From: Clostridia bacterium
GTDB taxonomy: Bacteria > Bacillota > Clostridia > UMGS1883 > UMGS1540
Assembly (NCBI GenBank): GCA_045592445.1
Contig: JAZNUV010000040.1
Location: 864-64,863, forward strand
Direction: 5' to 3'
Length of the DNA stretch: 64,000 nt
Made by a program: the position numbers and the translations under genes. The notes beneath the pieces were generated by a model. That model was not told the origin of the DNA and made no database searches. It saw only the letters and a list, made by a program, of their open reading frames with translations. The stretch's first letter is position 1, and every line of letters starts with the position of its first letter. Below, piece after piece: positions 12,594-62,911 of this stretch.

Positions 12594-13757
12594 TTAGAGT
12601 AATGCGTCCTTAAGTGCATCAGCCATATCTGTCTTTTCCCACGGGTATGCAGAATTTCCAAAATGCCCGTATGCAGCGGTTTGTGCAAAAATCGGGCGAC
12701 GAAGTCCCAGTTTTTCAATCATTCCATCCGGCCGCATATCAAATAATGCACTAACTGTTTCTGTAAGTTTTTCTTCTGAAACCTTTCCTGTACCAAATGT
12801 ATCCACCCGAAGGGATACAGGGCGTGCAACGCCAATTGCATATGCTGCCTGTAATTCGCATCTGTCTGCAAGACCTGCCGCTGTGATATTTTTTGCAATA
12901 TAACGGAGCATGTATGCTGCTGTTCTATCTACTTTTGTTGCATCTTTTCCAGACAATGCTCCACCGCCGTGGCGTGCAAAGCCACCGTACGTATCAACAA
13001 TAATTTTACGCCCTGTAAGGCCGGTATCTCCATGCGGACCACCTACAACAAAACGACCGGTCGGGTTAATAAATATTTTCGTATTATCATCAAGAAGAGC
13101 GCCGGGCACAACAGGTTTTATAACGGTTTCATAAATATCCGCACGCAACTTTTCAATATCTACATCAGGGTCATGTTGCGCAGAAATAACAATTGCCTCC
13201 ACACGTTTTACAACATTGCCGTCATATTCTACTGTAACCTGACTTTTTCCGTCCGGTCTTAAATATAAAAGTGTTCCATCTTCCCGCACCGCGGAAAGAC
13301 GGCGTGTAAGCGCGTGTGCAAGTGCAATTGGAAGCGGCATAAATTCCTCTGTTTCATTGCAGGCATATCCAAACATAAGCCCTTGGTCACCCGCGCCAAG
13401 TTCTTGTATGCCACCCAGCTTTGATTCATATGAGTTATCTACGCCCATCGCAATATCAGGCGACTGCTCACGTATACAGTTTAAAACTGCACACGTTTCC
13501 GCGTCAAAACCATAACTTGCTTTGTTATAACCAATTTCTCGAATGGTTTGTCTTGCAATATTTGCAATATCCACATAACAGTTTGTCGTAATTTCTCCCA
13601 TAACCATCACAAGACCAGTTGTTGCTGCCACCTCACAAGCAACACGTGCGGTAGGGTCCTGTGCCAAGATAGCATCCAAAACGCTGTCCGATACTTTATC
13701 ACACAACTTATCGGGATGTCCCGCTGTTACAGATTCTGAAGTAAAATAGTGTTTCAT
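12594..13757 (-). CDS. metK: S-adenosylmethionine synthase (methionine adenosyltransferase)
   Basis: [16 protein letters not shown] signature and GGGAFSGKD motif. The track's M1 is GTG; trimmed to ATG ([10 protein letters not shown]) with a GAGAAAGAAGAG RBS. Confidence 0.95.
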
Positions 13758-17521: not shown

Positions 17522-17684
17522 TGTTCATCTGTAGTATTTTATTCCTTCTTTTTTTATATTATAACAGTATTTTAAATGTAAGTAAATAAGTATTTCATAA
17601 AAAAATAATAATTTAATAAAATTTGTACAGTTTATTTAAAATACTGTTATAAATCAAAAATTTTTTAATGTAATTGTATTGTAA

Positions 17685-17717
17685 AGCGGATACATGCAAT
17701 ATAGCATACATCCGCTT
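17685..17717 (-). terminator. hairpin downstream of gatB (putative gatCAB terminator)
   Basis: AGCGGATACATGC / GCATACATCCGCT imperfect 13-bp stem; its outer arms match the 25-nt palindrome at 62446 and 62618. Confidence 0.45.
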
Positions 17718-17723
17718 CTCTTC

Positions 17724-19163
17724 CTATGCTTTCATTTCATTTAATATTTCACACAGTTTAGTCTGAATGATACCAGGATTCGCCTTCCCTTTTGATGCAC
17801 GCATAATTTGTCCTGTTAAAAAGCCAATTGCGCGCTCTTTTCCTGCATGATAATCTGCAACCGCTGCAGCATTTAATGCAAGCACCTCTTTGATGAGAGA
17901 CAAAATTGCACCTTCATCGCTGATTTGCGCAAGGCCTTCTGCTTCTACAATCTCCTTTGCCGAACAGGAAATATCAAACATTTTAGGAAGTACCTGTTTT
18001 GCAATTGTACCGCTTATTGTTCCACTTTCAATTAAAGATATCAGTTCTGCAAGTGCTTTTCCGCCAAAGGGAATTTCCGTTGCATCCATAAGGCGTTCAT
18101 TCATAATTTTACTGATTTCACCCAAAAGCCAGTTGGATACAATTTTGGGTTTTACGTTACACTGTACTGTTTCCTCAAATAAATCCGAAAGACCTTTGGA
18201 GGCACCGATAAGTGACGCATCATACGCAGGCAAATCAAATTCTGCCATATAACGCCGTTTTTTCTCCTGCGGTAATTCGGGTAAAGAATCTTTAATAGAA
18301 TCTATCCATGCTGTATCTACATGTATCGGCATTAAATCCGGTTCGGGGAAATATCTGTAATCTTGTGCTTCTTCTTTCGAACGCATCAAAATGCTCATGC
18401 CTTTTGCGTCATCCCACCGCCTGGTTTCTTGTTCAACTACGCCACCCGATTCAAGAATCGAAATTTGACGGTCACGCTCAAAACGGATAGCCCGTACAGC
18501 AGCTCGGAATGAGTTTACGTTTTTACATTCACTGCGAACGCCAAATTCTTTTTGACCAAACGGACGCACTGAAACATTGATATCACAGCGCAAAGAGCCT
18601 TCCTGCATCTTGCAATCAGATACACCTATGGCCTGCAAAATAGATTTAATCGATTCCAAAAACGCCATTGCCTCTTCCGGAGAGCGCATATCGGGTTCGC
18701 TAACAATTTCAATCAGCGGAACGCCGCCACGGTTATAGTCAACAAGCGAGAAGTTTCCACCTTCTGCATGTAAAAGTTTTCCGGCATCTTCCTCAATATG
18801 AATCCGTGTTATCCCTATTTTTTTTGTATCTTCTTCCGTATCAATTTCAACAAATCCATCATAGCACAAAGGCAAATCAAATTGGGAAATCTGGTATGCT
18901 TTCGGCAAATCCGGATAAAAATAGTTTTTTCTGTCCTGCTTACACGTGGTTGCAATATTGCAGTGCATCGCAAGGCCCGCCTTAATGGCATAGTCAGCTA
19001 CGCGCCGATTCAGCACCGGCAATGTACCCGGGAGGCCTATGCAAACCGGGCAACACCGTGTATTCGTGTCTCCACCGAATTGATTGGCACAACTACAATA
19101 TATTTTAGTTTCTGTTGCAAGTTCTGCATGTACTTCAAGACCGATTACTGTTTCATAATTCAT
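17724..19163 (-). CDS. gatB: Asp-tRNA(Asn)/Glu-tRNA(Gln) amidotransferase subunit B
   Basis: [16 protein letters not shown]-terminus and GatB/YqeY C-terminal domain; ATGA overlap with the gatA stop. Confidence 0.95.
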
Positions 19164-20626
19164 GCCAATTCCCCTCCTATCGGCAAAAACGCACCACATT
19201 GTTCAAGTGCATATGCAGCGTGTAATACTGTTGCATCATGCATTCTATCTCCAATCAGTTGTACACCGATTGGTAAACCTTTTGCATCACAGCCGCACGG
19301 TAAACTTAGTGCCGGCAACCCTGCTATGTTTACAGAAACGGTACATATATCTGCCAAATACATTTGCAATGGATCCTCTGACTTCTCTCCGAATTTCCAT
19401 GCCGTACAAGGAGATGTTGGTGTTAGAATCGTATCACATTTTTCGAACACACGAGAAAAATCTTTGCAAATAAGTGTACGCGCCTTTTGTGCCTTTTTAT
19501 AATATGCATCATAGTATCCGCTGCTCAGAACAAACGTACCCAGCATGATGCGACGTTTAACTTCATCCCCAAAGCCTTCGCTTCTTGTCTTTAAAAACAG
19601 TTCCTCTAAATCTTTGCAATTTTCAGCACGAAAACCGTAGCGAACACCATCATATCTAGCGAGATTTGAACTTGCTTCCGCAGAAGAAATCATATAATAC
19701 GTTTCTAATGCATGAGGTAACATCGGGAGTGAACATTCAATAATCTCAGCACCCATCTTTTCATATGCCCGAGCTGCGGCTAAAACGGTTTCCTTTATAT
19801 CCGCATCAATTGCGCCCTCTATGTATTCCTTTGGCAGACCAATTCGCATAGATTTGCAGTCGCTATTTAATGCGCTTGTAAAATCCATTCCATCATACGA
19901 AAGAGAGGTTGAGTCCTTTTCATCCTTACCTGCAATGGATTGTAACACGATTGCACAGTCCTGCACATCTTTCGTAAGCGGACCAATTTGGTCAAGCGAA
20001 GATGCAAATGCAACTAAACCATAACGCGAAACAAGGCCATATGTCGGTTTCATACCGACCACGCCACAAAGTGCAGCGGGTTGACGAATCGAACCACCTG
20101 TATCTGAGCCGAGAGCAAAAACTGCTTCATTTGCAGCAACTGCAGCCGCCGAACCACCGGAAGATCCGCCCGGAACACAGGCAGTATTTCTCGGATTTTT
20201 TGTTTTCTTAAAATAGGAATTTTCAGTCGAGGAGCCCATAGCAAACTCATCCATGTTTGCCTTTCCTACCATAACACAGTCTGCCGCTCGCAGTTTTTCA
20301 ACGACAGTTGCGTCATAGGGCGGAACATAGTTCTCAAGCATTTTAGATGCGCATGTCGTTGCTATACCGTTTGTTGAAATATTATCTTTAACTGCCATGG
20401 GTATACCTGCAAGCGGCGAAAGTGTCTCGCCATTTGCAATTTTTTTATCTACAGCATCTGCCGTCCGAAGCGCCTCTTCCTTTGTCAATGTAATAAGACT
20501 ATTTATATTTGGTTCTGTTGTTTCTATATGTTGCAAATGCGCTTTTGTAAGTTCAACCGCAGAAATTTCTCGGCTTTTTAACTTTTCGGACAAAGCGTGT
20601 GCTGTCATTTTACAAAGTGAATGCAT
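19160..20626 (-). CDS. gatA: Asp-tRNA(Asn)/Glu-tRNA(Gln) amidotransferase subunit A
   Basis: Amidase signature [13 protein letters not shown]; position between gatC and gatB. Confidence 0.95.
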
Positions 20627-38355: not shown

Positions 38356-38569
38356 TTAAAATCTCTCCCTTTCCATATCATTATGCATTTTATAATATCA
38401 TACCATACTTTGTAAGTCAAGATAAAATTGCATATTTTTTCAAAAAAAAATAAAGATTTTTTCTATATTTTATGTGTATCGTTTAAAACAAGTAGATTTT
38501 TATTTATTTTTGTATTTTCTTATATCAATCGGAAACACTATAGTATACTACTGCATTTTGGGAGGAACT

Positions 38570-41500
38570 ATGAGACAAAGCATTAAAAAAAGTTTTTTTC
38601 AAATCAAAAAAACATATTTATCACTAAAAACCGAAAACAAAACAATGAAATCAGGCTCAGATGCCGAATGGCTTTCTGATAATTTCTATATTTTTGAACA
38701 GGAATATCTGGCAGTAAAAACCATACATCCAAAAGGTTTAAATGCTAAAAAAGCAGTCCAAACCATGTCCAGATTTATTGAATCTTTTTTTGCAAAGCAT
38801 GATTATCTTTTAGAGGAAAGTTCGTTAAAATCCGCGCTTGATGAAGCACAAAAAACATCATATTTCTCCTCCTGTGCACTACGTATGCTTCCTTATTGCA
38901 TACGTAAAGCCCTTCTGACGCGGGCAGCAGTTTTATGCCGTACGCCGCAAAAGGACGGATTGTTTAAAAATATAATTTTCTCTTTCCTTGCACTCCGTAA
39001 TATCAATATGGAAAAGATTTTTGCTTCGCATTCTGTCGTTGATTCCATATTCTCCACTGATTTAATATATGAAGAAATGACAGAAAACACAAAAGAAACC
39101 TATCGAAAAATTATAACAAATCTTGCTTTGAAAAGTAAAAAAAGCGAACATGATGTAGCCAACGCCGTAGTATCCTTAACAAAAAAGAAAAAAGGGTCTG
39201 CAGCACACGTTGGCTTTTTTCTGATTGGTAACGGCAGAGATGAATTGCAGGATGTTCTTCATTTGAAACGGCAAAAAAAAATAAACAAGTCACTCATATA
39301 CATTCTGTCTGTTCTTTCCCTTACGCTTTTAACGGGTCTTTCTCTTTTTTATATAACAAGGCAAATACTATGGACGCTTTTATCTTTGATTCCCATTTCT
39401 GAAATTATAGTCACTCTTTTACAGTATGTTGTACTAAAATCAACACCTGTGCGCGAACTGCCGGCAATCAAATCAGAAAATTGTGTTTCTGAACCCGTTC
39501 TTATTGTGTACCCTACTCTTCTTTCCTCTGCAAAAAAAGCTGAAGAAATGGCAAAAAAACTGGAAACTGCATATCTTGCAAATTGCAATCATAATCTTCA
39601 TTTTGCAATTTTAGGTGATTTTAAAGATGCAAATGAGAAAAACGAGGATACCGCTATACCGAATGCTGCCTCAAACGCCATCCGTAATCTGAATGCACAA
39701 TATGGTGACCGCTTTTATTTTCTGCATCGATCACAAGTTTACAGTAAAGCACAAAAAAAGTGGATGGGATGGGAGCGAAAACGTGGTGCGCTTTCGGATT
39801 TAAACAATTTTTTACGTGGAGAATATACATTTGAGTACACAGAAGGACGTATACAAAATCTCCAAAATCTCCAAAATATAAACTATGTTTTAACGCTTGA
39901 CGATGATACACTTCTACCGCCGGATTCCGTTACACGCCTTTTAGGCATTGCCCTGCATCCGCTTAATAAGCCAATTATACAAAATGGCATTGTAACAAAT
40001 GGCTATGGTATTATTCAGCCTCGCATCTGTGTTCGCATTGAAAGTGCATGGAAAACCTTATTTTCACGTATATTCGCAGGGCAAGGCGGAATCGATACCT
40101 ATCACACGTCTGTATCTGAATTTTACATGGATTTATTTGGTGAGACTGTTTTTACAGGGAAAGGTCTTTATCATGTAGATACATTCCGAAAGTGCATGTC
40201 TATCCCACCTGATACGGTTTTAAGCCATGACCTTTTAGAAGGCAACTATGTCCGTTGTGCATTGGCATCTGATGTACAAGTTTTCGACGGATTCCCGCAC
40301 CGATTCCCTGCGTATGTAATTCGCCAACATCGTTGGATTCGCGGTGATTGGCAAATTATGCCGTGGTTATTTAAATTTGTACGGACTGAAAATGGCGATA
40401 AGGTTAAAAACCCACTGTCGGTTCTGTCTAAATGGAAAATATTTGAGAATTTACGGCGTAGTGTTACACCGATTTTTCAACTTATACTCATCTTATTTGG
40501 GAATCCGCTCTCGGTTCTCACTGCATTTGCCTCTCTCCTTTTTCCAATGCTTTTATACTGTATCGATGCAATCTTACAAAAAAGCTTTTTGTATATGGGA
40601 GAAAAGATATACACTTTCCTCATCTATGGATTTCGAGGCATTCTTTATCAATTCACGCTTTCCGTTGCCTTTCTTGCACAAAACGCGTATTATGCATTTC
40701 ATGCAGTTGTAACAGGCATTTATCGCACAATTACTCATAAAAAAACATTGGAATGGGTAACTGCTGCAGATGCAGATACAAACGGTATTTTTACCCTTGC
40801 CTCCTCCTGCATTTTTATGCTACCTTCTGTTGTTATTGGTCTTATATGCCTTCTTTTGGTTTTAAATGGTTTTTTTGAGAGCGGCATTAAACTTATACTT
40901 GGCATAGTTTTTATTATTGCGCCCGTCCTTCTCTATATTACCGGACAGGAAAGCGAAACGAAAACGCCCGTACTTTCAAAAAAAAGAGAGATGCTTTTAC
41001 GCGAAACTGCAAAGCACACTTGGAATTTCTTTCGGGATTATATGACAGAAGAAGACCATTTTTTACCTCCCGACAATATACAAATAAAACCATATAAAGG
41101 AATTGCGCACAGAACAAGTCCGACCAACATTGGATTTGGTATGATTGCATGTCTTTGTGCCTATCATCTTTCATTTATCACAGCACAGGAACTGGAAACA
41201 CGACTTACAAGAACCATTGATACAATTGAATCTCTTGACAAATGGAAGGGGCATTTGTATAACTGGTATGACACAAAAACGCTTTCTCCACTCTCTCCGC
41301 GTTATATTTCCACTGTGGACAGCGGCAATTTCGTTTGCTATTTAATTGTCGTAATGATGGGGATTTCCTCTATATTTGACAAATCACATCCCCTTATAAA
41401 ACGACTGCAACGCTTAATTGAAAATACAAATTTTATCCCGCTTTATAATGCAAAGAAAAATCTTTTTGCCATTGGTTTTTCGGTTGACGAAAACAAGCTT

Positions 41501-44500
41501 TCTTCTGCTTATTATGATTTTCTTGCCAGTGAGGCAAGACAAGCAAGTTTTATTGCCATTGCGCTTGGGCAAATTCCCGCAAAGCACTGGTTCTCTTTGG
41601 GGCGCGGATTAACTGCATCGGATGGATATAAAGGGCTTATGTCTTGGTCAGGCACTATGTTTGAGTATTTTATGCCGCTTCTCATTATGAGAACATACCG
41701 TGGTACGCTTTTAGACGAAACCTATCGCTTTGCTTTAAATTGCCAGAAACGGTATGGCAGGCGGAGACGTATTCCGTGGGGTGTATCTGAATCCGGATTT
41801 TTTGGATTTGATTCTGACGGGAGCTACCAATACAAAGCATTTGGTGTGCCTTCGCTCGGTCTTGTCCGTCAGACAGATGATGATGTCGTTATCGCCCCTT
41901 ACGCAACTCTTTTAGCGCTGATGATAGACCCCCGTACCGCACTACAAAATATGTCTCTGCTAAAAAAGGCAGGCGTATATGGTGAGTATGGCTTTTATGA
42001 AGCAGTAGATTATACGCCTTCTCGCATGCACGGAAATATGCGCCGCGGTATTGTTAAAAGTTATATGGCGCACCACGCAGGCATGTCTTTAGCTGCGATT
42101 ACAAACGTTTTGGCTGATAATATTCTGCAGCAATATTTTCATGCATATCCAAAAGTGCATGCATATGAGCCATTTTTAAAGGAACGTATACCCTTGCGCA
42201 CACAGGTTATGCAAGCACGAAACGAGCGCGTTCTGCCTGTCCGTTCACGTTATAAAGCACAAAACACATGTGTACGTTCATTTATGCGTTCAGATACACT
42301 TCCCCGCCCCATTACGTTTTTGTCAAACGGCAGTTATCATCTTTTAATAGACAGTTCAGGTTTCGGCTACAGTTCACTTGACACGGTTCAATTTAACAAA
42401 TTTTATCCCGCTCGTGGTGGTGGAGAATCTGTGTATGTTGTAAATCCTACGACTCATGACGTATGGGACGGATACGGAGAACGATGTACCTTTTCGGGAC
42501 ATGCTGCGGAATACTTTGGTTCGCATGGTAATATCGAAACTGTATTATCTGTCACAGTATGTCCTGATGATAATTGTGCTTCACGCCGCATTACAATTAT
42601 CAATAAATCTGGAAAAAGACGCGTTTTTGAAGTTTATTATTATACGGATATCTGTTTAACTGTTCCCTCCGCCGCACTTGCACACAACACCTTCTCAAAT
42701 CTATTTGTCACAACAAAAATGGAAGCAGATGTTCTATATGCAGAAAGACGGCAAAGAAGTAATAACGAAAAAACATTTATTGGCTTTTTGACTGCATATA
42801 CAGAGGGTAACTCCATCGGAGAAATTCAATTCGATACAGACAGATTGTCATTTTGTGGGCGTGAGGGCATTTCACCCATGACATTTGAAGGAACGGATAT
42901 CCTCGCAGGCAGACAAGGTATTGTGTTAGACCCTTGTTTTGCCGTAAAGCTTCGAATTTCTATAGAAAGCGGTGAAAGCGGCTCCGTCACCTTCCTTTCG
43001 GGCATGGCGGAAACACATGAAAAAGCAGCTTCTATTACGAAAAAATATAAAAAAAATCCAATAAATTTCAAAGAAGCAGCTGCATTGTACGTTAAGAATA
43101 ACTTACCTGTAAATTTCAAAGAGAGCGAAGAAATTGATATTATGCATATTGCAGGCTATATGCTCTATGGTAATAATCCCGACCTATCTCTGTACAGAGA
43201 GAAAAACACGAAAATGCGAAATACCTTGTGGAAAATGGGGATATCGGGCGACTATCCAATCTTAACGGTAAAAATTAGTAAAGAAGAAAATGCAGAAATT
43301 TTATCTACGCTTGTAAAAGCGCAAAAATATTGGCTGTATAACGGGTTCCGAACTGACCTTGTTGTTTTTTGTGATGAACCCGGCGGCTACACGATGCCAA
43401 TTTACCAAATGGCAAGTAAAATGAAAAATACAGGCATATTTATCTTGAAACGATGCGATGTAGATGCAGGCGATATAAATTTTTTATATGCTGTCTCCTC
43501 TGTGTATATTGATAGTGAAAAAAACGGAATCAAAAATATTCCACCCTATCCTGCTATCCCCCAAAAACGTTTGCCTTTAAAAGAGAATCACCACGATAAA
43601 AAACCTGATATACCCCCACTTGTCTATATGAACGGATACGGCGGGTTTCATAAAGAAAATTCCGAATACGTTATAATACAAACAAAAGGCGGTTCCACAC
43701 CCATGCCCTGGGTCCATGTTATTGCAAATCCGTCTTTTGGGTTTATAGCAGGCGAATCAGGCGGCGGTAACACTTGGTGCGATAACAGTCATGCCTTCCG
43801 TATATCACCTTGGTATAACGATGCAGTATTAGACCCAATGGGAGAACGACTTTTTCTCTTTGACGAAAATGATATTTGGTCACCCATGGCAGGCACATTC
43901 CGTGAGGAAGGCCATTTTATGACGCGCTACGGCTTTGGCTATGCAGTATATACACGTATTACGCGCGATTTATTTCATGAGGCGACACTCTTCACACCCC
44001 CTACGGGCAAGAAAAAAATCATTTGTCTGCATATCCGAAACGAGGGTAAATCTACACGCCGATTTCATGTACAATATGAATTTGTGCCCGTACTTGGCGT
44101 GATCGAAAAAGCGGATGATATAAAAATCAAAGTTGAAAAAAACTGTGTTTATGCAGAAAACGCAATGACAAATCCGAATCTATCCGTATATCTTTCGGGT
44201 GGAGATGACTCGATATGCAATGGCGACGGGCATCTTGTCCGGGCAAAAAAAGAAATTGAACTAAAACCCAATGAAACAGCAGAAGTTGTTTTTGTACTCG
44301 GTGCAGACAACACTCCTATCGTGAATGCGGAAACGGCCCTGTCCGAAACCAAAGCATGGTGGAAAAATCTTCTCAGCGGTATTTCTGTGGAAACAGATAC
44401 AGTTGCAGATGACCTTTTGCTTTCCGGATGGCTCTTGTACCAGACGGTAGCCTGTCGTTTATTTGCAAAGTCAGCATTCTATCAGTCTGGAGGTGCCACA

Positions 44501-45811
44501 GGATTCCGCGACCAGTTGCAAGATGCTCTGGCACTTTTGTATACGGCACCCGAAATGGTTAAACAACAAATACTCTATCATGCAGCCTATCAATTTCAGG
44601 AAGGCGATGTGTTTCATTGGTGGCATCACGACGAACGAGGTGTTCGCACAAGATTTACGGATGACAGATTATGGCTTCCTTATACACTCTGTCGCTATCT
44701 CGAGGTGACAGAGGATGAAAGTATCTTGGATGCCCCTGTTTCCTTTATAATAGAGCCGCCTTTAGAACCCCACGAGGAAGAACGCTATACGTTTGTAAAA
44801 GAAAGAACTGCACCCCATCCCCTATATGAGCATGCTGTAAGAGCAATTGAAATTTCTCTTTCAAAAGGACAACACGGCTTACCGCTTATGGGTGGCGGAG
44901 ATTGGAATGACGGCATGAACGCTGTCGGCATACGCGGTGAAGGAGAAAGTGTTTGGCTAGGTTGGTTTTTAAAACACGTACTTGAACTTTTTATTCCAAT
45001 CGCCGAAAAACGTGGTGATATTGAACGTGCCAAAAGGTACAAACACGAAATGCATTTACTCTTAGAAGCGCTTGAAGCAACCTGGGATAATACACATTAT
45101 GCACGTGCATATTTTGACAGCGGCGCACCTCTCGGCACCTCCGACTCTACGGAATGTTCGATTGATGCCATCAGTCAGGCATGGGCAGTCATTGCAGGCG
45201 GCGGGCGTGTCTCCAGACAAAAAACTGCAATGGATACTCTTTACAGCACGCTTGTAGACCGTGAGAAAGGAATTATACGGCTTCTTGCTCCACCCTTTCA
45301 AAACAGCAAAGAAAGCCCCGGCTACATTCAAAGCTATCCTGCCGGCATACGAGAAAATGGCGGTCAATATACGCATGGGGCAATATGGGTTGCCATAGCA
45401 TTTGCAATGCTTGGAAATCCTGCTCGGGCTTTGGAATTGTTTCGAATGTTAAATCCTGTTTTAAGGTCGGAAACCCGTGTAAGTGCAAATATATATAAAG
45501 CTGAGCCTTATGTAATGACAGCGGATATCTACACGGCAAGAGATCATGTCGGACGCGGTGGCTGGAGTTGGTATACGGGTGCCGCGTCATGGATGTATCA
45601 GCTTGGCATACAATATATACTTGGCTTTAAAAAACAGGGAAATATTGTTTCCTTTAAACCTTGCCTCCCTCCTGAAAAATTAGGGTTTACGCTTCGATAT
45701 CGTTACAAATCTTCTATGTATATTTTCCACGTGCACGGCAATTCCGAAGATCCCATTGTACTTTCGGATGATGGAAAAACACATGAAATTACAATTGGTA
45801 AAAAAGAATAA
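38570..45811 (+). CDS. giant multidomain glycosyltransferase/glycoside-hydrolase-like protein resembling cyclic beta-1,2-glucan synthase (TM - GT84-like - TM - (alpha/alpha)6 glucoamylase-like - GH94-like)
   Basis: ATG 38570 with GGGAGGA RBS; the track's GTG extension is discarded. Processive-GT motifs LTLDDDT and QHRWIRGDWQIMPW; at least six predicted TM helices; PTNIGFG...YNWYDT middle domain; C-terminal GGATGFRDQLQDALAL...DVFHWWH and GGGDWNDGMN motifs. Confidence 0.8.
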   Translation: MRQSIKKSFFQIKKTYLSLKTENKTMKSGSDAEWLSDNFYIFEQEYLAVKTIHPKGLNAKKAVQTMSRFIESFFAKHDYLLEESSLKSALDEAQKTSYFSSCALRMLPYCIRKALLTRAAVLCRTPQKDGLFKNIIFSFLALRNINMEKIFASHSVVDSIFSTDLIYEEMTENTKETYRKIITNLALKSKKSEHDVANAVVSLTKKKKGSAAHVGFFLIGNGRDELQDVLHLKRQKKINKSLIYILSVLSLTLLTGLSLFYITRQILWTLLSLIPISEIIVTLLQYVVLKSTPVRELPAIKSENCVSEPVLIVYPTLLSSAKKAEEMAKKLETAYLANCNHNLHFAILGDFKDANEKNEDTAIPNAASNAIRNLNAQYGDRFYFLHRSQVYSKAQKKWMGWERKRGALSDLNNFLRGEYTFEYTEGRIQNLQNLQNINYVLTLDDDTLLPPDSVTRLLGIALHPLNKPIIQNGIVTNGYGIIQPRICVRIESAWKTLFSRIFAGQGGIDTYHTSVSEFYMDLFGETVFTGKGLYHVDTFRKCMSIPPDTVLSHDLLEGNYVRCALASDVQVFDGFPHRFPAYVIRQHRWIRGDWQIMPWLFKFVRTENGDKVKNPLSVLSKWKIFENLRRSVTPIFQLILILFGNPLSVLTAFASLLFPMLLYCIDAILQKSFLYMGEKIYTFLIYGFRGILYQFTLSVAFLAQNAYYAFHAVVTGIYRTITHKKTLEWVTAADADTNGIFTLASSCIFMLPSVVIGLICLLLVLNGFFESGIKLILGIVFIIAPVLLYITGQESETKTPVLSKKREMLLRETAKHTWNFFRDYMTEEDHFLPPDNIQIKPYKGIAHRTSPTNIGFGMIACLCAYHLSFITAQELETRLTRTIDTIESLDKWKGHLYNWYDTKTLSPLSPRYISTVDSGNFVCYLIVVMMGISSIFDKSHPLIKRLQRLIENTNFIPLYNAKKNLFAIGFSVDENKLSSAYYDFLASEARQASFIAIALGQIPAKHWFSLGRGLTASDGYKGLMSWSGTMFEYFMPLLIMRTYRGTLLDETYRFALNCQKRYGRRRRIPWGVSESGFFGFDSDGSYQYKAFGVPSLGLVRQTDDDVVIAPYATLLALMIDPRTALQNMSLLKKAGVYGEYGFYEAVDYTPSRMHGNMRRGIVKSYMAHHAGMSLAAITNVLADNILQQYFHAYPKVHAYEPFLKERIPLRTQVMQARNERVLPVRSRYKAQNTCVRSFMRSDTLPRPITFLSNGSYHLLIDSSGFGYSSLDTVQFNKFYPARGGGESVYVVNPTTHDVWDGYGERCTFSGHAAEYFGSHGNIETVLSVTVCPDDNCASRRITIINKSGKRRVFEVYYYTDICLTVPSAALAHNTFSNLFVTTKMEADVLYAERRQRSNNEKTFIGFLTAYTEGNSIGEIQFDTDRLSFCGREGISPMTFEGTDILAGRQGIVLDPCFAVKLRISIESGESGSVTFLSGMAETHEKAASITKKYKKNPINFKEAAALYVKNNLPVNFKESEEIDIMHIAGYMLYGNNPDLSLYREKNTKMRNTLWKMGISGDYPILTVKISKEENAEILSTLVKAQKYWLYNGFRTDLVVFCDEPGGYTMPIYQMASKMKNTGIFILKRCDVDAGDINFLYAVSSVYIDSEKNGIKNIPPYPAIPQKRLPLKENHHDKKPDIPPLVYMNGYGGFHKENSEYVIIQTKGGSTPMPWVHVIANPSFGFIAGESGGGNTWCDNSHAFRISPWYNDAVLDPMGERLFLFDENDIWSPMAGTFREEGHFMTRYGFGYAVYTRITRDLFHEATLFTPPTGKKKIICLHIRNEGKSTRRFHVQYEFVPVLGVIEKADDIKIKVEKNCVYAENAMTNPNLSVYLSGGDDSICNGDGHLVRAKKEIELKPNETAEVVFVLGADNTPIVNAETALSETKAWWKNLLSGISVETDTVADDLLLSGWLLYQTVACRLFAKSAFYQSGGATGFRDQLQDALALLYTAPEMVKQQILYHAAYQFQEGDVFHWWHHDERGVRTRFTDDRLWLPYTLCRYLEVTEDESILDAPVSFIIEPPLEPHEEERYTFVKERTAPHPLYEHAVRAIEISLSKGQHGLPLMGGGDWNDGMNAVGIRGEGESVWLGWFLKHVLELFIPIAEKRGDIERAKRYKHEMHLLLEALEATWDNTHYARAYFDSGAPLGTSDSTECSIDAISQAWAVIAGGGRVSRQKTAMDTLYSTLVDREKGIIRLLAPPFQNSKESPGYIQSYPAGIRENGGQYTHGAIWVAIAFAMLGNPARALELFRMLNPVLRSETRVSANIYKAEPYVMTADIYTARDHVGRGGWSWYTGAASWMYQLGIQYILGFKKQGNIVSFKPCLPPEKLGFTLRYRYKSSMYIFHVHGNSEDPIVLSDDGKTHEITIGKKE

Positions 45812-61371: not shown

Positions 61372-61899
61372 ATGCGAAATTTTTGGGGACACCTTTGTAC
61401 TATTACAAAACATCGGCACATGGTAATACGCCATGCCTGGTACTGTGGCATCTTTTGGCAAGGACTTCGGCACGATTTATCCAAGTACAGTCCTTCAGAA
61501 TTCTGGACGGGTGTGCGCTATTTTAAAGGCTCGAAAAGCCCCAACGAAGGCGAACGAGAAACATATGGTTACTCCATTGCATGGATGCATCATAAAGGTC
61601 GGAACAAACATCATTTTGAGTATTGGACGGATTATGACCGTGTAACACGCGCCATGTCCCCTGTCAAAATGCCCCTTTGCTACGTAAAAGAAATGTTTTG
61701 TGACCGAGTTGCCGCGAGTAAAGTTTATCAAGGAGAGGCATATACGAACGCACATCCTCTTTCCTATTTTCATCGTGGAAAGGCCAATCGTTCCATTCAC
61801 CCAGAAACTTCTGCTCTTTTAGAATCATGGCTGACTATATTGGCTGAATCAGGAGAGGGTGCCGCCTTTTCTGAAATTCGAAACTGCACACACTATTAG
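61372..61899 (+). CDS. hypothetical protein, DUF5662-like (His-rich HDLSKYS motif)
   Basis: 175 aa; FWGHLCTITKHR...HDLSKYSPSEF...GYSIAWMHHKGRNKHHFEYW resembles the uncharacterized DUF5662 family as I recall it. Confidence 0.5.
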   Translation: MRNFWGHLCTITKHRHMVIRHAWYCGIFWQGLRHDLSKYSPSEFWTGVRYFKGSKSPNEGERETYGYSIAWMHHKGRNKHHFEYWTDYDRVTRAMSPVKMPLCYVKEMFCDRVAASKVYQGEAYTNAHPLSYFHRGKANRSIHPETSALLESWLTILAESGEGAAFSEIRNCTHY

Positions 61900-61917
61900 C
61901 AAAAGAAGGTGTTCCTT

Positions 61918-62439
61918 ATGAAAAATACAAGAAAAACAATAATGGCAGCATTGTTTGCTGCACTTTGCTGTGTATCAACTATTGCTATTGTGATTCCTTC
62001 TCCTATGGATGGATATGTTAATCTTGGCGATTGCTTTGTTCTTTTATCAGGTTGGTTTCTTGGTCCTTTATACGGCGGTCTTGCCGCAGGAATTGGTTCA
62101 TTCTTGTCAGATGTGTTTACAGGTTATTTGCATTATGCGCCCGCCACACTGATTATAAAAGGCTTGATGGGCATTTTGGCAGCTTCTTTATATCGGTTGT
62201 TTCATCGGCTCTTGCACCTTCACAAAAAAAATATCTATGCTGTTTTTTTAAGCGCATTTTTGAGTGAGTGTTTTATGGTTTTCGGTTATTTTTTGTATGC
62301 TGCACTTCTTTTAGGAAATGGATTGGCGGCTACGGCAAGCATTCCCGGCAATCTCATGCAGGGTACAATCGGAATCATTGCATCTCTCCTTTTATTCAGT
62401 GCAATCAAAAATATATTTCCCTCTGATTTTACAAAATGA
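61918..62439 (+). CDS. ECF transporter S component (substrate-capture subunit, specificity unknown)
   Basis: Five to six TM helices with ECF-S pattern (LGDCFVLLSGWFLGPLYGGLAAGIGSFLSDV...ATLIIKG). ATG 61918 with GAAGGTG RBS; the track's GTG extension is trimmed. Confidence 0.7.
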   Translation: MKNTRKTIMAALFAALCCVSTIAIVIPSPMDGYVNLGDCFVLLSGWFLGPLYGGLAAGIGSFLSDVFTGYLHYAPATLIIKGLMGILAASLYRLFHRLLHLHKKNIYAVFLSAFLSECFMVFGYFLYAALLLGNGLAATASIPGNLMQGTIGIIASLLLFSAIKNIFPSDFTK

Positions 62440-62445
62440 AAATAG

Positions 62446-62499
62446 CGGATACATAAACTGTATCCGCTCAGCGTGTCGATAAAGTCTCGACACGCTGAG
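62446..62499 (+). terminator. tandem hairpins downstream of the ECF-S gene (25-nt palindrome plus 14-bp hairpin)
   Basis: AGCGGATACA-TAAAC-TGTATCCGCT followed directly by GCTCAGCGTGTCGA-TAAAGTC-TCGACACGCTGAGC; the T-tract is displaced by about 20 nt. Confidence 0.4.
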
Positions 62500-62642
62500 C
62501 GAGACATCGAAAAACGCAGTTATATTTTTTGATATACAGAATGGAAAAATCCATTCCCTGCAAAATTGTGGTTATGATGACTTTTCTTGCGGTAGAACAA
62601 GTTTTTCGACAGTCTTAGCGGATACATAAACTGTATCCGCTA
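62446..62642. repeat. pair of identical 25-nt perfect palindromes flanking a structured 150-nt spacer
   Basis: Copies at 62446..62470 and 62618..62642. Long-range complementarity TCGAAAAAC (62511..62519) / GTTTTTCGA (62601..62609). Confidence 0.7.
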
Positions 62643-62650
62643 TTTTTATG
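62618..62650 (+). terminator. second copy of the 25-nt palindrome followed by a T-tract
   Basis: Identical AGCGGATACATAAACTGTATCCGCT followed by ATTTTTATG. Confidence 0.5.
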
Positions 62651-62662
62651 CTACCTGTATTT

Positions 62663-62911
62663 TTAATCTTCTCCTATGATTTCATACATAGAAGATGCCG
62701 ATTCCTTGGTCACATGTTCCGAAAGCGCTAACACACGAACACAAACCTTTTTCTCTCCAAAACCAATTTCAACAATATCACCGATTTTGACGTCAGCACC
62801 TGCCTTTACAGGCTTCCCGCCTATGTGGACGCGACCTTGTGCACACGCTTCGTTTGCGACGGTGCGACGCTTTATCAATCTCGATACCTTTAAAAATTTA
62901 TCAATTCGCAT
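62663..62911 (-). CDS. S4-domain RNA-binding protein (Hsp15/YabO-like)
   Basis: 82 aa; MRIDKFLKVSRLIKRRTVANEACAQGRVHIGGKPVKAG is a canonical S4 fold signature. Confidence 0.8.
   Translation of the reverse strand: MRIDKFLKVSRLIKRRTVANEACAQGRVHIGGKPVKAGADVKIGDIVEIGFGEKKVCVRVLALSEHVTKESASSMYEIIGED

Follow-up and report, generated by a model that had tools for sequence, protein, structure and literature searches.

A structured spacer between convergent genes of a Clostridia bacterium probably contains a small mobile element flanked by copies of its target terminator hairpin

Between the gene for an ECF-transporter S component and the convergent gene of an S4-domain protein, the DNA analyzed here (64,000 nucleotides, referred to as the window) contains a spacer of 223 bp in which palindromes are unusually dense. 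Of about 12 perfect hairpins with a stem of at least 9 bp in the 64 kb, 3 are found inside 200 bp of this spacer. This raises the question of what such an island is: a small RNA gene, a mobile palindromic insertion, a regulatory 3' untranslated region (3' UTR), or a pair of terminators.

Structure of the spacer and its duplicated hairpin

The genes and the duplicated sequence are arranged as follows.

61918-62439, + strand: ECF-transporter S-component (ECF-S) gene (Pfam ECF-ribofla_trS), whose predicted terminator is the target
62443-62468: target copy 1, a 25-nt palindrome (10-bp stem, loop TAAAC) plus one T
62616-62641: target copy 2, matching copy 1 over 26 nt, with the loop oriented alike
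62663-62911, - strand: S4-domain gene (82 aa), convergent; the predicted target terminator is common to both genes

A sequence-only reading had described the spacer as devoid of plausible open reading frames (ORFs) and unusually rich in structure, and both descriptions are borne out. All ORFs in the spacer are of 35 aa or less, and none is gene-like. A hidden small protein or type I toxin was rejected, as the island ORFs of 31 to 35 aa are not hydrophobic and one begins in a hairpin loop; the 85-aa ORF called in a related locus (L015) is an open-ended artifact that reads through hairpins. The spacer folds at -91 kcal/mol, versus -45 kcal/mol for shuffled sequences (z = -11.3 on the + strand and -10.9 on the - strand, or about -11 on both).

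The same reading had placed two identical palindromes, with a 10-bp stem and a 5-nt loop, at 62446 and 62618. The copies, stem, and loop are as described, and the positions are corrected here to 62444-62468 and 62617-62641. The 25-mer, AGCGGATACATAAACTGTATCCGCT, forms an exact direct repeat of 26 nt when the extra T is included. The number of chance matches expected from a shuffled window is 0, and the window harbors 2 copies, a count that is unchanged when up to 3 mismatches are allowed. The exact 25-mer is absent from the JGI metagenomes and IMG/VR, and its stem, with the loop left free, retrieves 13 unrelated single hairpins from 185,579 GTDB representative genomes, in which homology to the 25-mer stops at the stem. 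The suggestion that the 25-mer might be a dispersed repeat is thus ruled out by the searches of the window, GTDB, the JGI metagenomes, and IMG/VR.

Rather, the palindrome has the features of a bidirectional terminator, that is, a G+C-containing stem-loop with a T-tract and an upstream A-tract for the reverse direction, and its predicted stability is -14 to -16 kcal/mol. Copy 2 resembles a terminator in the direction of the ECF-S gene, because TTTTTAT directly follows the palindrome on the + strand, and copy 1 resembles one in the direction of the S4 gene, because ATTTTCATTTT directly follows the palindrome on the - strand. In a terminator scan, copy 2 passed on the + strand and copy 1 on the - strand, in the outward directions only, and the T-tract is retained solely on the outer side of each copy. 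As the outer flanks, ATGAAAAT and ATTTTTAT, are mutually complementary, deletion of the DNA between the copies together with one copy would restore a textbook bidirectional terminator, and the empty site reconstructed in this manner is perfect. Judged from its sequence and flanks, the 25-mer is a duplicated target site, namely the local terminator that is predicted to act in both directions, for the ECF-S gene and for the S4-domain gene.

A third hairpin with the same outer stem (AAGCGGAT...ATCCGCTT), in which AGCGGATACAT is common to the 25-mer, is present at 17684-17717, just downstream of gatB (17724-19199, - strand). As about 7 such 11-mer matches are expected, the match is probably a coincidence and the hairpin an ordinary terminator.

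The putative inserted element and its family

The DNA between the two target copies consists of the following parts, in the order of the + strand.

62469-62616, - strand: inserted element of 147 or 148 bp; base 62616 is ambiguous and may belong to the element or to the duplication
62469-62497, - strand: terminal hairpin CAGCGTGTCGA-N7-TCGACACGCTG, the signature of the family
62469-62535, - strand: conserved 3' block (profile positions 180-244, E = 2.7e-12)
62498-62501, - strand: linker, AGCG as read on the + strand, 4 nt directly inside the terminal hairpin
62507-62515: closing stem, strand one (TCGAAAAAC), pairing with 62601-62609; family columns 6-16 / 220-230
62523-62528: deletion junction with AATATA microhomology, where L015 has 100 extra bp
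62539-62556: 7-bp GAATGGA/TCCATTC hairpin in the variable, A-rich interior of the element
62567-62615, - strand: conserved 5' block (profile positions 2-50, E = 2.2e-5)
62601-62609: closing stem, strand two (GTTTTTCGA), pairing with 62507-62515

On the - strand, the element runs from 5' (A)AGACTGTCGAAAAAC to TCGACACGCTG 3'; the start is also given as (C)AGACTGTCGAAAAA, and the end is the terminal hairpin. The outer arm of this hairpin is the terminal inverted repeat: 8 of 11 positions agree between the 5' end, CAGACTGTCGA, and the reverse complement of the 3' end, CAGCGTGTCGA. The hairpin had been noticed before as a perfect 14-bp hairpin fused to the first palindrome. It is indeed perfect, and its stem is of 15 bp (62465-62479 / 62487-62501, with a 7-nt loop) and overlaps copy 1 by 4 nt, the first 4 nt of the stem (CGCT, 62465-62468) being the last 4 nt of copy 1. 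The extension to 15 bp is due to the linker AGCG, which complements CGCT of the flanking target copy. A long-range stem of about 13 bp had also been proposed; a stem is present at this position, with 9 perfect pairs and a further GAC/GTC past a bulge, and corresponds to the closing helix conserved in the family. Its 5' strand lies in the conserved 5' block together with a CCGCAAG motif, and its 3' strand lies in the conserved 3' block together with the terminal hairpin. The GAATGG/CCATTC hairpin reported inside this stem is longer by one pair (7 bp); it is shared with L015 and absent from other family members.

The family was collected by searching metagenome contigs for the arms CAGCGTGTCGA-N7-TCGACACGCTG, a pattern of 22 specified bases. 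This gave 31 exact matches, all of them in homologous context and all scoring against the family profiles in nhmmer searches; they represent 26 distinct loci with different flanks, 5 of which were encountered twice in different samples. Two types can be distinguished: type A elements of 151 to 164 bp in contigs of 57 to 66% G+C, the full-length copies of which score at E = 1e-28 to 1e-49 (nhmmer), and type B elements of 235 to 252 bp in contigs of 42 to 51% G+C. Full-length copies start with CAGACTGTC(A/G)AAAAA, and the terminal hairpin is their last feature. The ends are short, imperfect inverted repeats of 11 nt, CAG(A/C)(C/G)TGTCGA, kept in both types. A type B profile built from four copies, with the window and L015 left out, matched L015 over its full length (E = 1.8e-37, nhmmer) and the window in two pieces, positions 180-244 at 62535-62469 on the - strand and positions 2-50 at 62615-62567 (E values as listed above). 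This two-piece match indicates that what remains in the island is the two ends of a type B element on the - strand, part of its middle having been deleted. The window contains this one copy and no further one in its 64 kb.

The sequence-only reading had held that a 25-mer unique in the genome, in a region neither conserved nor expressed, would mean an ordinary tandem terminator. The 25-mer is unique to the locus, and template switching can also generate perfect palindromes; both would suit a duplicated terminator that arose locally, through duplication or template switching, and owes nothing to a mobile element. We nevertheless consider this explanation very improbable, since elements homologous to the intervening segment, with the same ends, occur at 26 other, unrelated loci, and a local duplication would copy the whole unit and not the hairpin alone. 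The same reading had also allowed for a REP- or MITE-like insertion with target duplication. The MITE-like character and the duplication hold, the likeness to REP does not, and the parts exchange roles: the 25-mer is the apparent duplicated target and not a repeat family, and the "14-bp hairpin" is the conserved terminus of a dispersed element. The dispersed part is the inner 147/148 bp, which belongs to a widespread and apparently undescribed family.

Most members carry a locus-specific linker of 3 to 7 nt just inside the terminal hairpin, usually complementary to the bases with which the flank begins; examples are CGCT/AGCG (window), GCCTGT/ACAGGC (L025), and GCCCTT/AAGGGC (L027). Stem-extending linkers were also noted in L044, L046, L048, and L053. 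This complementarity may derive from a "perfecting" of palindromes by template switching or from the chemistry of insertion. Many family copies are located within a few hundred base pairs of contig ends, as expected of a multicopy repeat.

Several partial copies were observed as well. L034 contains a mini-element of 42 bp (12968-13009) in which the 5' end is joined to the 3' end, and L039 (313-341; also L045) contains a solo terminal hairpin of 29 bp set between complementary flanks; both are deletion derivatives. A truncated type A copy adjoins a hairpin in L032 (4848-4917). A motif seemingly common to L021 was not significant, and a loose match in the viral scan, L054, was a chance match. 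Naive ORF calls around the insertions were unreliable in the high-G+C contigs. No similarity to plasmids or phages was found, and a search of the collected family loci, plasmids, phages, and IMG/VR for an autonomous element or a transposase bearing these ends gave none.

Duplication of hairpins at putative insertion sites

At 16 other loci and in the window, 17 in total, a locus-specific hairpin of 21 to 39 bp is directly repeated around the element, one copy abutting the conserved 5' end and the other located at an offset of 0 or at most 4 nt from the 3' end. The duplication is perfect in the window (26/26), L040 (28/28), L051 (30/30), L036 (32/32), and L043 (34/34). All 17 long duplications are hairpins of unrelated sequence, many with flanking T- or A-tracts, and the length of the duplication is that of the target hairpin plus 0 to 3 nt. 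At a site that is not a hairpin, L026 (met a second time as L037), the element is flanked by a repeat of just 4 to 5 bp, (A/G)GTAT. A clear two-sided duplication is missing at about 10 loci.

By nucleotide comparison it can be shown that in the window the putative insertion lies at the base of the terminator hairpin, with a 26-bp target-site duplication that places the whole hairpin on either side. The ancestral spacer would have contained a single bidirectional terminator, AAAAT, AGCGGATACA-TAAAC-TGTATCCGCT, ATTTTT. A transposase may have made its usual short staggered cut, of about 4 to 5 bp, across the base of the extruded cruciform, and repair would then leave a duplication consisting of the hairpin and a few bases. 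Such a short, fixed stagger across the cruciform base would account for the copying of the whole palindrome to both sides with the loop in direct orientation, as observed. The window copy later lost 100 internal bp.

With respect to known systems, the family has the attributes of MITEs: its members are small and noncoding, have terminal inverted repeats (short and imperfect) and target-site duplications, and are found at unrelated loci. Like Correia, RUP, ERIC, Nezha, and Chunjie, they occur in many copies with stable predicted folds and internal-deletion derivatives (PMC3184786). Unlike those MITEs, which have fixed duplications of 2 to 9 bp, the family has a duplication that varies from 21 to 39 bp with the target hairpin, and its inverted repeat is only 11 nt and is doubled back to back as a hairpin at the right end. 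Type B elements, with their internal terminator-like hairpin, are also similar to SPRITE, the dispersed pneumococcal repeat that resembles Rho-independent terminators; in SPRITE the repeat itself is terminator-like, whereas the terminators flanking the family elements are duplicated host sequence.

For the IS1182 family, direct repeats of 0 to 60 bp are given in the ISfinder tables, and ...TGTC.AAAA is a frequent reading of IS5/IS1182-type ends. The targeting of stem-loops without sequence preference, as seen in our family, is a property of IS1272 and TnSha1, staphylococcal members of the IS1182 family, which insert into inverted repeats with no sequence consensus, many of which are confirmed terminators just downstream of genes (PMC5678879, PMC4923244). 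In one branch of the published stem-loop model, joining at the 5' feet of the cruciform duplicates the whole stem-loop, whereas the observed behavior of IS1272 is to delete or replace the stem-loop with no duplication (PMC5678879, PMC4923244). The family keeps the stem-loop whole on both sides, in agreement with the hypothetical "pathway b" (PMC5678879) and not with what IS1272 has been observed to do. It further differs from IS1272 in its size of 150 to 250 bp and in having no transposase gene, and the two are likened by targeting and not by sequence.

A REP/REPIN element mobilized by a RAYT tyrosine transposase would likewise be an extragenic palindrome at gene 3' ends, frequently where two genes converge, as in this spacer, whose two palindrome copies can pair as a long hairpin. 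The island is almost certainly not of this kind. REP elements have one conserved sequence within a genome, present in hundreds of copies with no target duplication, whereas here the palindrome is different at every locus, target duplication is present in the family, and the 64 kb contain no third copy of the 25-mer. Y1/HUH transposases of the IS200/IS605 and RAYT group carry out single-strand transposition, without target duplication. Class C bacterial group II introns home to positions directly behind the stem-loops of intrinsic terminators. They are ribozymes that measure 600 nt or more and generally come with a reverse transcriptase, and unlike the family they are not known to duplicate hairpins; Rfam scans of the window and the family elements gave no group II intron match.

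Taken together, the evidence suggests that the island is very probably one copy of a small, noncoding, MITE-like transposable element inserted at the foot of a hairpin. Counted against this are the failure to find an autonomous partner or an exact empty-site allele, the single copy in 64 kb, the roughly 10 loci without a clear two-sided duplication, and the fact that IS1272 itself deletes the stem-loop. The family would then consist of small nonautonomous elements with structure-directed targeting, of which the duplication of whole hairpins is the unusual feature. This interpretation accounts for the odd structured spacer with no need of a new RNA gene and reveals a family of small elements in uncultured anaerobes, in contigs of 42 to 66% G+C, and the 17 insertions with hairpin-length duplications would provide in-genome evidence that transposition machinery meets palindromes as extruded structures. 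The 21- to 39-bp direct repeats that result invite deletion, insertions of this family break metagenome assemblies, and copies are at risk of being annotated as small RNA genes or tandem terminators.

Relatives of the locus, transcript overlap, and RNA-based readings

Relatives of the locus were reached via the S4 and DUF5662 proteins. In the protein collection the source contig is a singleton, with ECF-S homologues following at no more than about 60% identity, and homologues at that level are found in contexts unrelated to that of the window. L015, from a close strain, is 98.7% identical over 1.35 kb of the flanking genes and contains the same insertion plus 100 bp, which form two strong hairpins within the long-range stem, one of them resembling a bidirectional terminator. 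As L015 carries a full-length copy, the window copy has lost 100 internal bp, and the comparison shows that a terminator-like hairpin belonging to the element went with the lost segment. An inversion or an invertible promoter was rejected, because the window and L015 have collinear interiors and directly oriented loops. L014 and L020 (about 80% DNA identity) have neither the island nor the ECF-S gene; in both, DUF5662 converges on the S4 gene over 79 nt with one different bidirectional terminator. L022 retains the DUF5662-ECF-S pair, which there faces rplQ with two ordinary terminators. The comparison of these four loci indicates that the island is confined to one species-level lineage. No exact empty-site allele was found among the relatives of this locus, the closest island-free ones, L014 and L020, also being without ECF-S.

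The gap between DUF5662 and ECF-S is 18 nt both in the window (gene pair at 61372-62439) and in L022, a tight coupling. The absence of ECF-S between DUF5662 and S4 in L014 and L020 suggests that the transporter gene was gained or lost at this junction. L018 and L019, from different assemblies, are 99.4% identical to the window and both stop exactly at 61977 inside the ECF-S gene; this common break may be due to structural variation of the gene among strains. L015, which shares its sample with L019, stops at 62477 inside the terminal hairpin, a break that is consistent with a multicopy repeat.

An insertion of this kind would alter the 3' ends of both host genes. Each transcript would first meet a hairpin without a U-tract and would reach the copy with a U-tract about 170 nt later. 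As the near hairpin lacks a U-tract, the convergent transcripts probably overlap over about 200 fully complementary, structured nucleotides. Such insertions would thus turn a common terminator into overlapping convergent 3' UTRs. In L015, the internal terminator-like hairpin would limit the overlap, and the window allele has lost that hairpin.

This predicted arrangement, in which only the far copy has a U-tract for each gene, also fits a host regulatory device, whereby long overlapping 3' UTRs of about 200 complementary nucleotides would couple expression of ECF-S and S4 via antisense pairing and cleavage of double-stranded RNA. We regard such a device as quite unlikely, because the arrangement follows automatically from insertion, because the internal bidirectional terminator-like hairpin of the full-length copy in L015 would block most of the overlap, and because the relatives have ordinary terminators (in L014 and L020 one that both genes share, in L022 two that are separate).

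The structure itself raises the possibility of a noncoding RNA gene, or of an RNA that serves the mobility of the element, with the island a damaged copy and the helices under selection. Guide RNAs serve mobility in other IS families. The type B consensus contains 57 pairs, of which 21 have compensatory changes, including pairs of the long-range closing stem, and type A contains 7 covarying pairs. One covarying type B hairpin, with TTGCTTTTT behind it and an A-rich run ahead of it, resembles a bidirectional terminator. Across hosts of 42% to 66% G+C, the terminal hairpin has the same 22 arm bases, an invariance that is partly due to ascertainment since the search required those bases. Several observations nevertheless make this reading unlikely. 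No promoter-like site is present in or next to the island. The island, L015, and 13 family loci do not reach the gathering threshold of any family in Rfam 15, and permissive scans of type A and type B elements gave no match at threshold, so that a known RNA family of Rfam 15 was rejected. When the two strands were compared by G-U versus A-C counts and folding energies, type A was equal on both and type B was more stable on the opposite strand, an ambiguity to be expected of double-stranded palindromes. The window copy persists despite the loss of 100 bp of structure, and an RNA alone leaves the duplicated hairpins unexplained.

The covarying internal hairpins are not obligatory for a purely selfish element and could instead have an RNA function. 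An extension of the mobile-element interpretation, which we offer tentatively and hold to be improbable as a whole, is that the family documents naturally occurring, structure-specific transposition into cruciforms extruded in vivo and that its module is an RNA or single-stranded DNA cofactor of mobility or an insulator of host genes. The transposase would read the four-way junction at the foot of the terminator, so that the hairpin and not the enzyme would set the duplication at 21 to 39 bp. The conserved, covarying multihelix module may travel in the element, and type B may additionally carry its own bidirectional terminator. If true, this would be a so far undescribed kind of terminator-hopping element, perhaps with a novel partnership between a transposase and a nucleic acid.

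Elsewhere in the 64-kb window, no Rfam family reached its gathering score, no tRNA, rRNA, or riboswitch was detected, and the region upstream of the ECF-S gene likewise gave no riboswitch. The window also encodes a 2,445-aa ORF (38474-45811, + strand) with GT2, glucoamylase-like, and GH94 domains, a domain architecture that is that of cyclic beta-1,2-glucan synthase.
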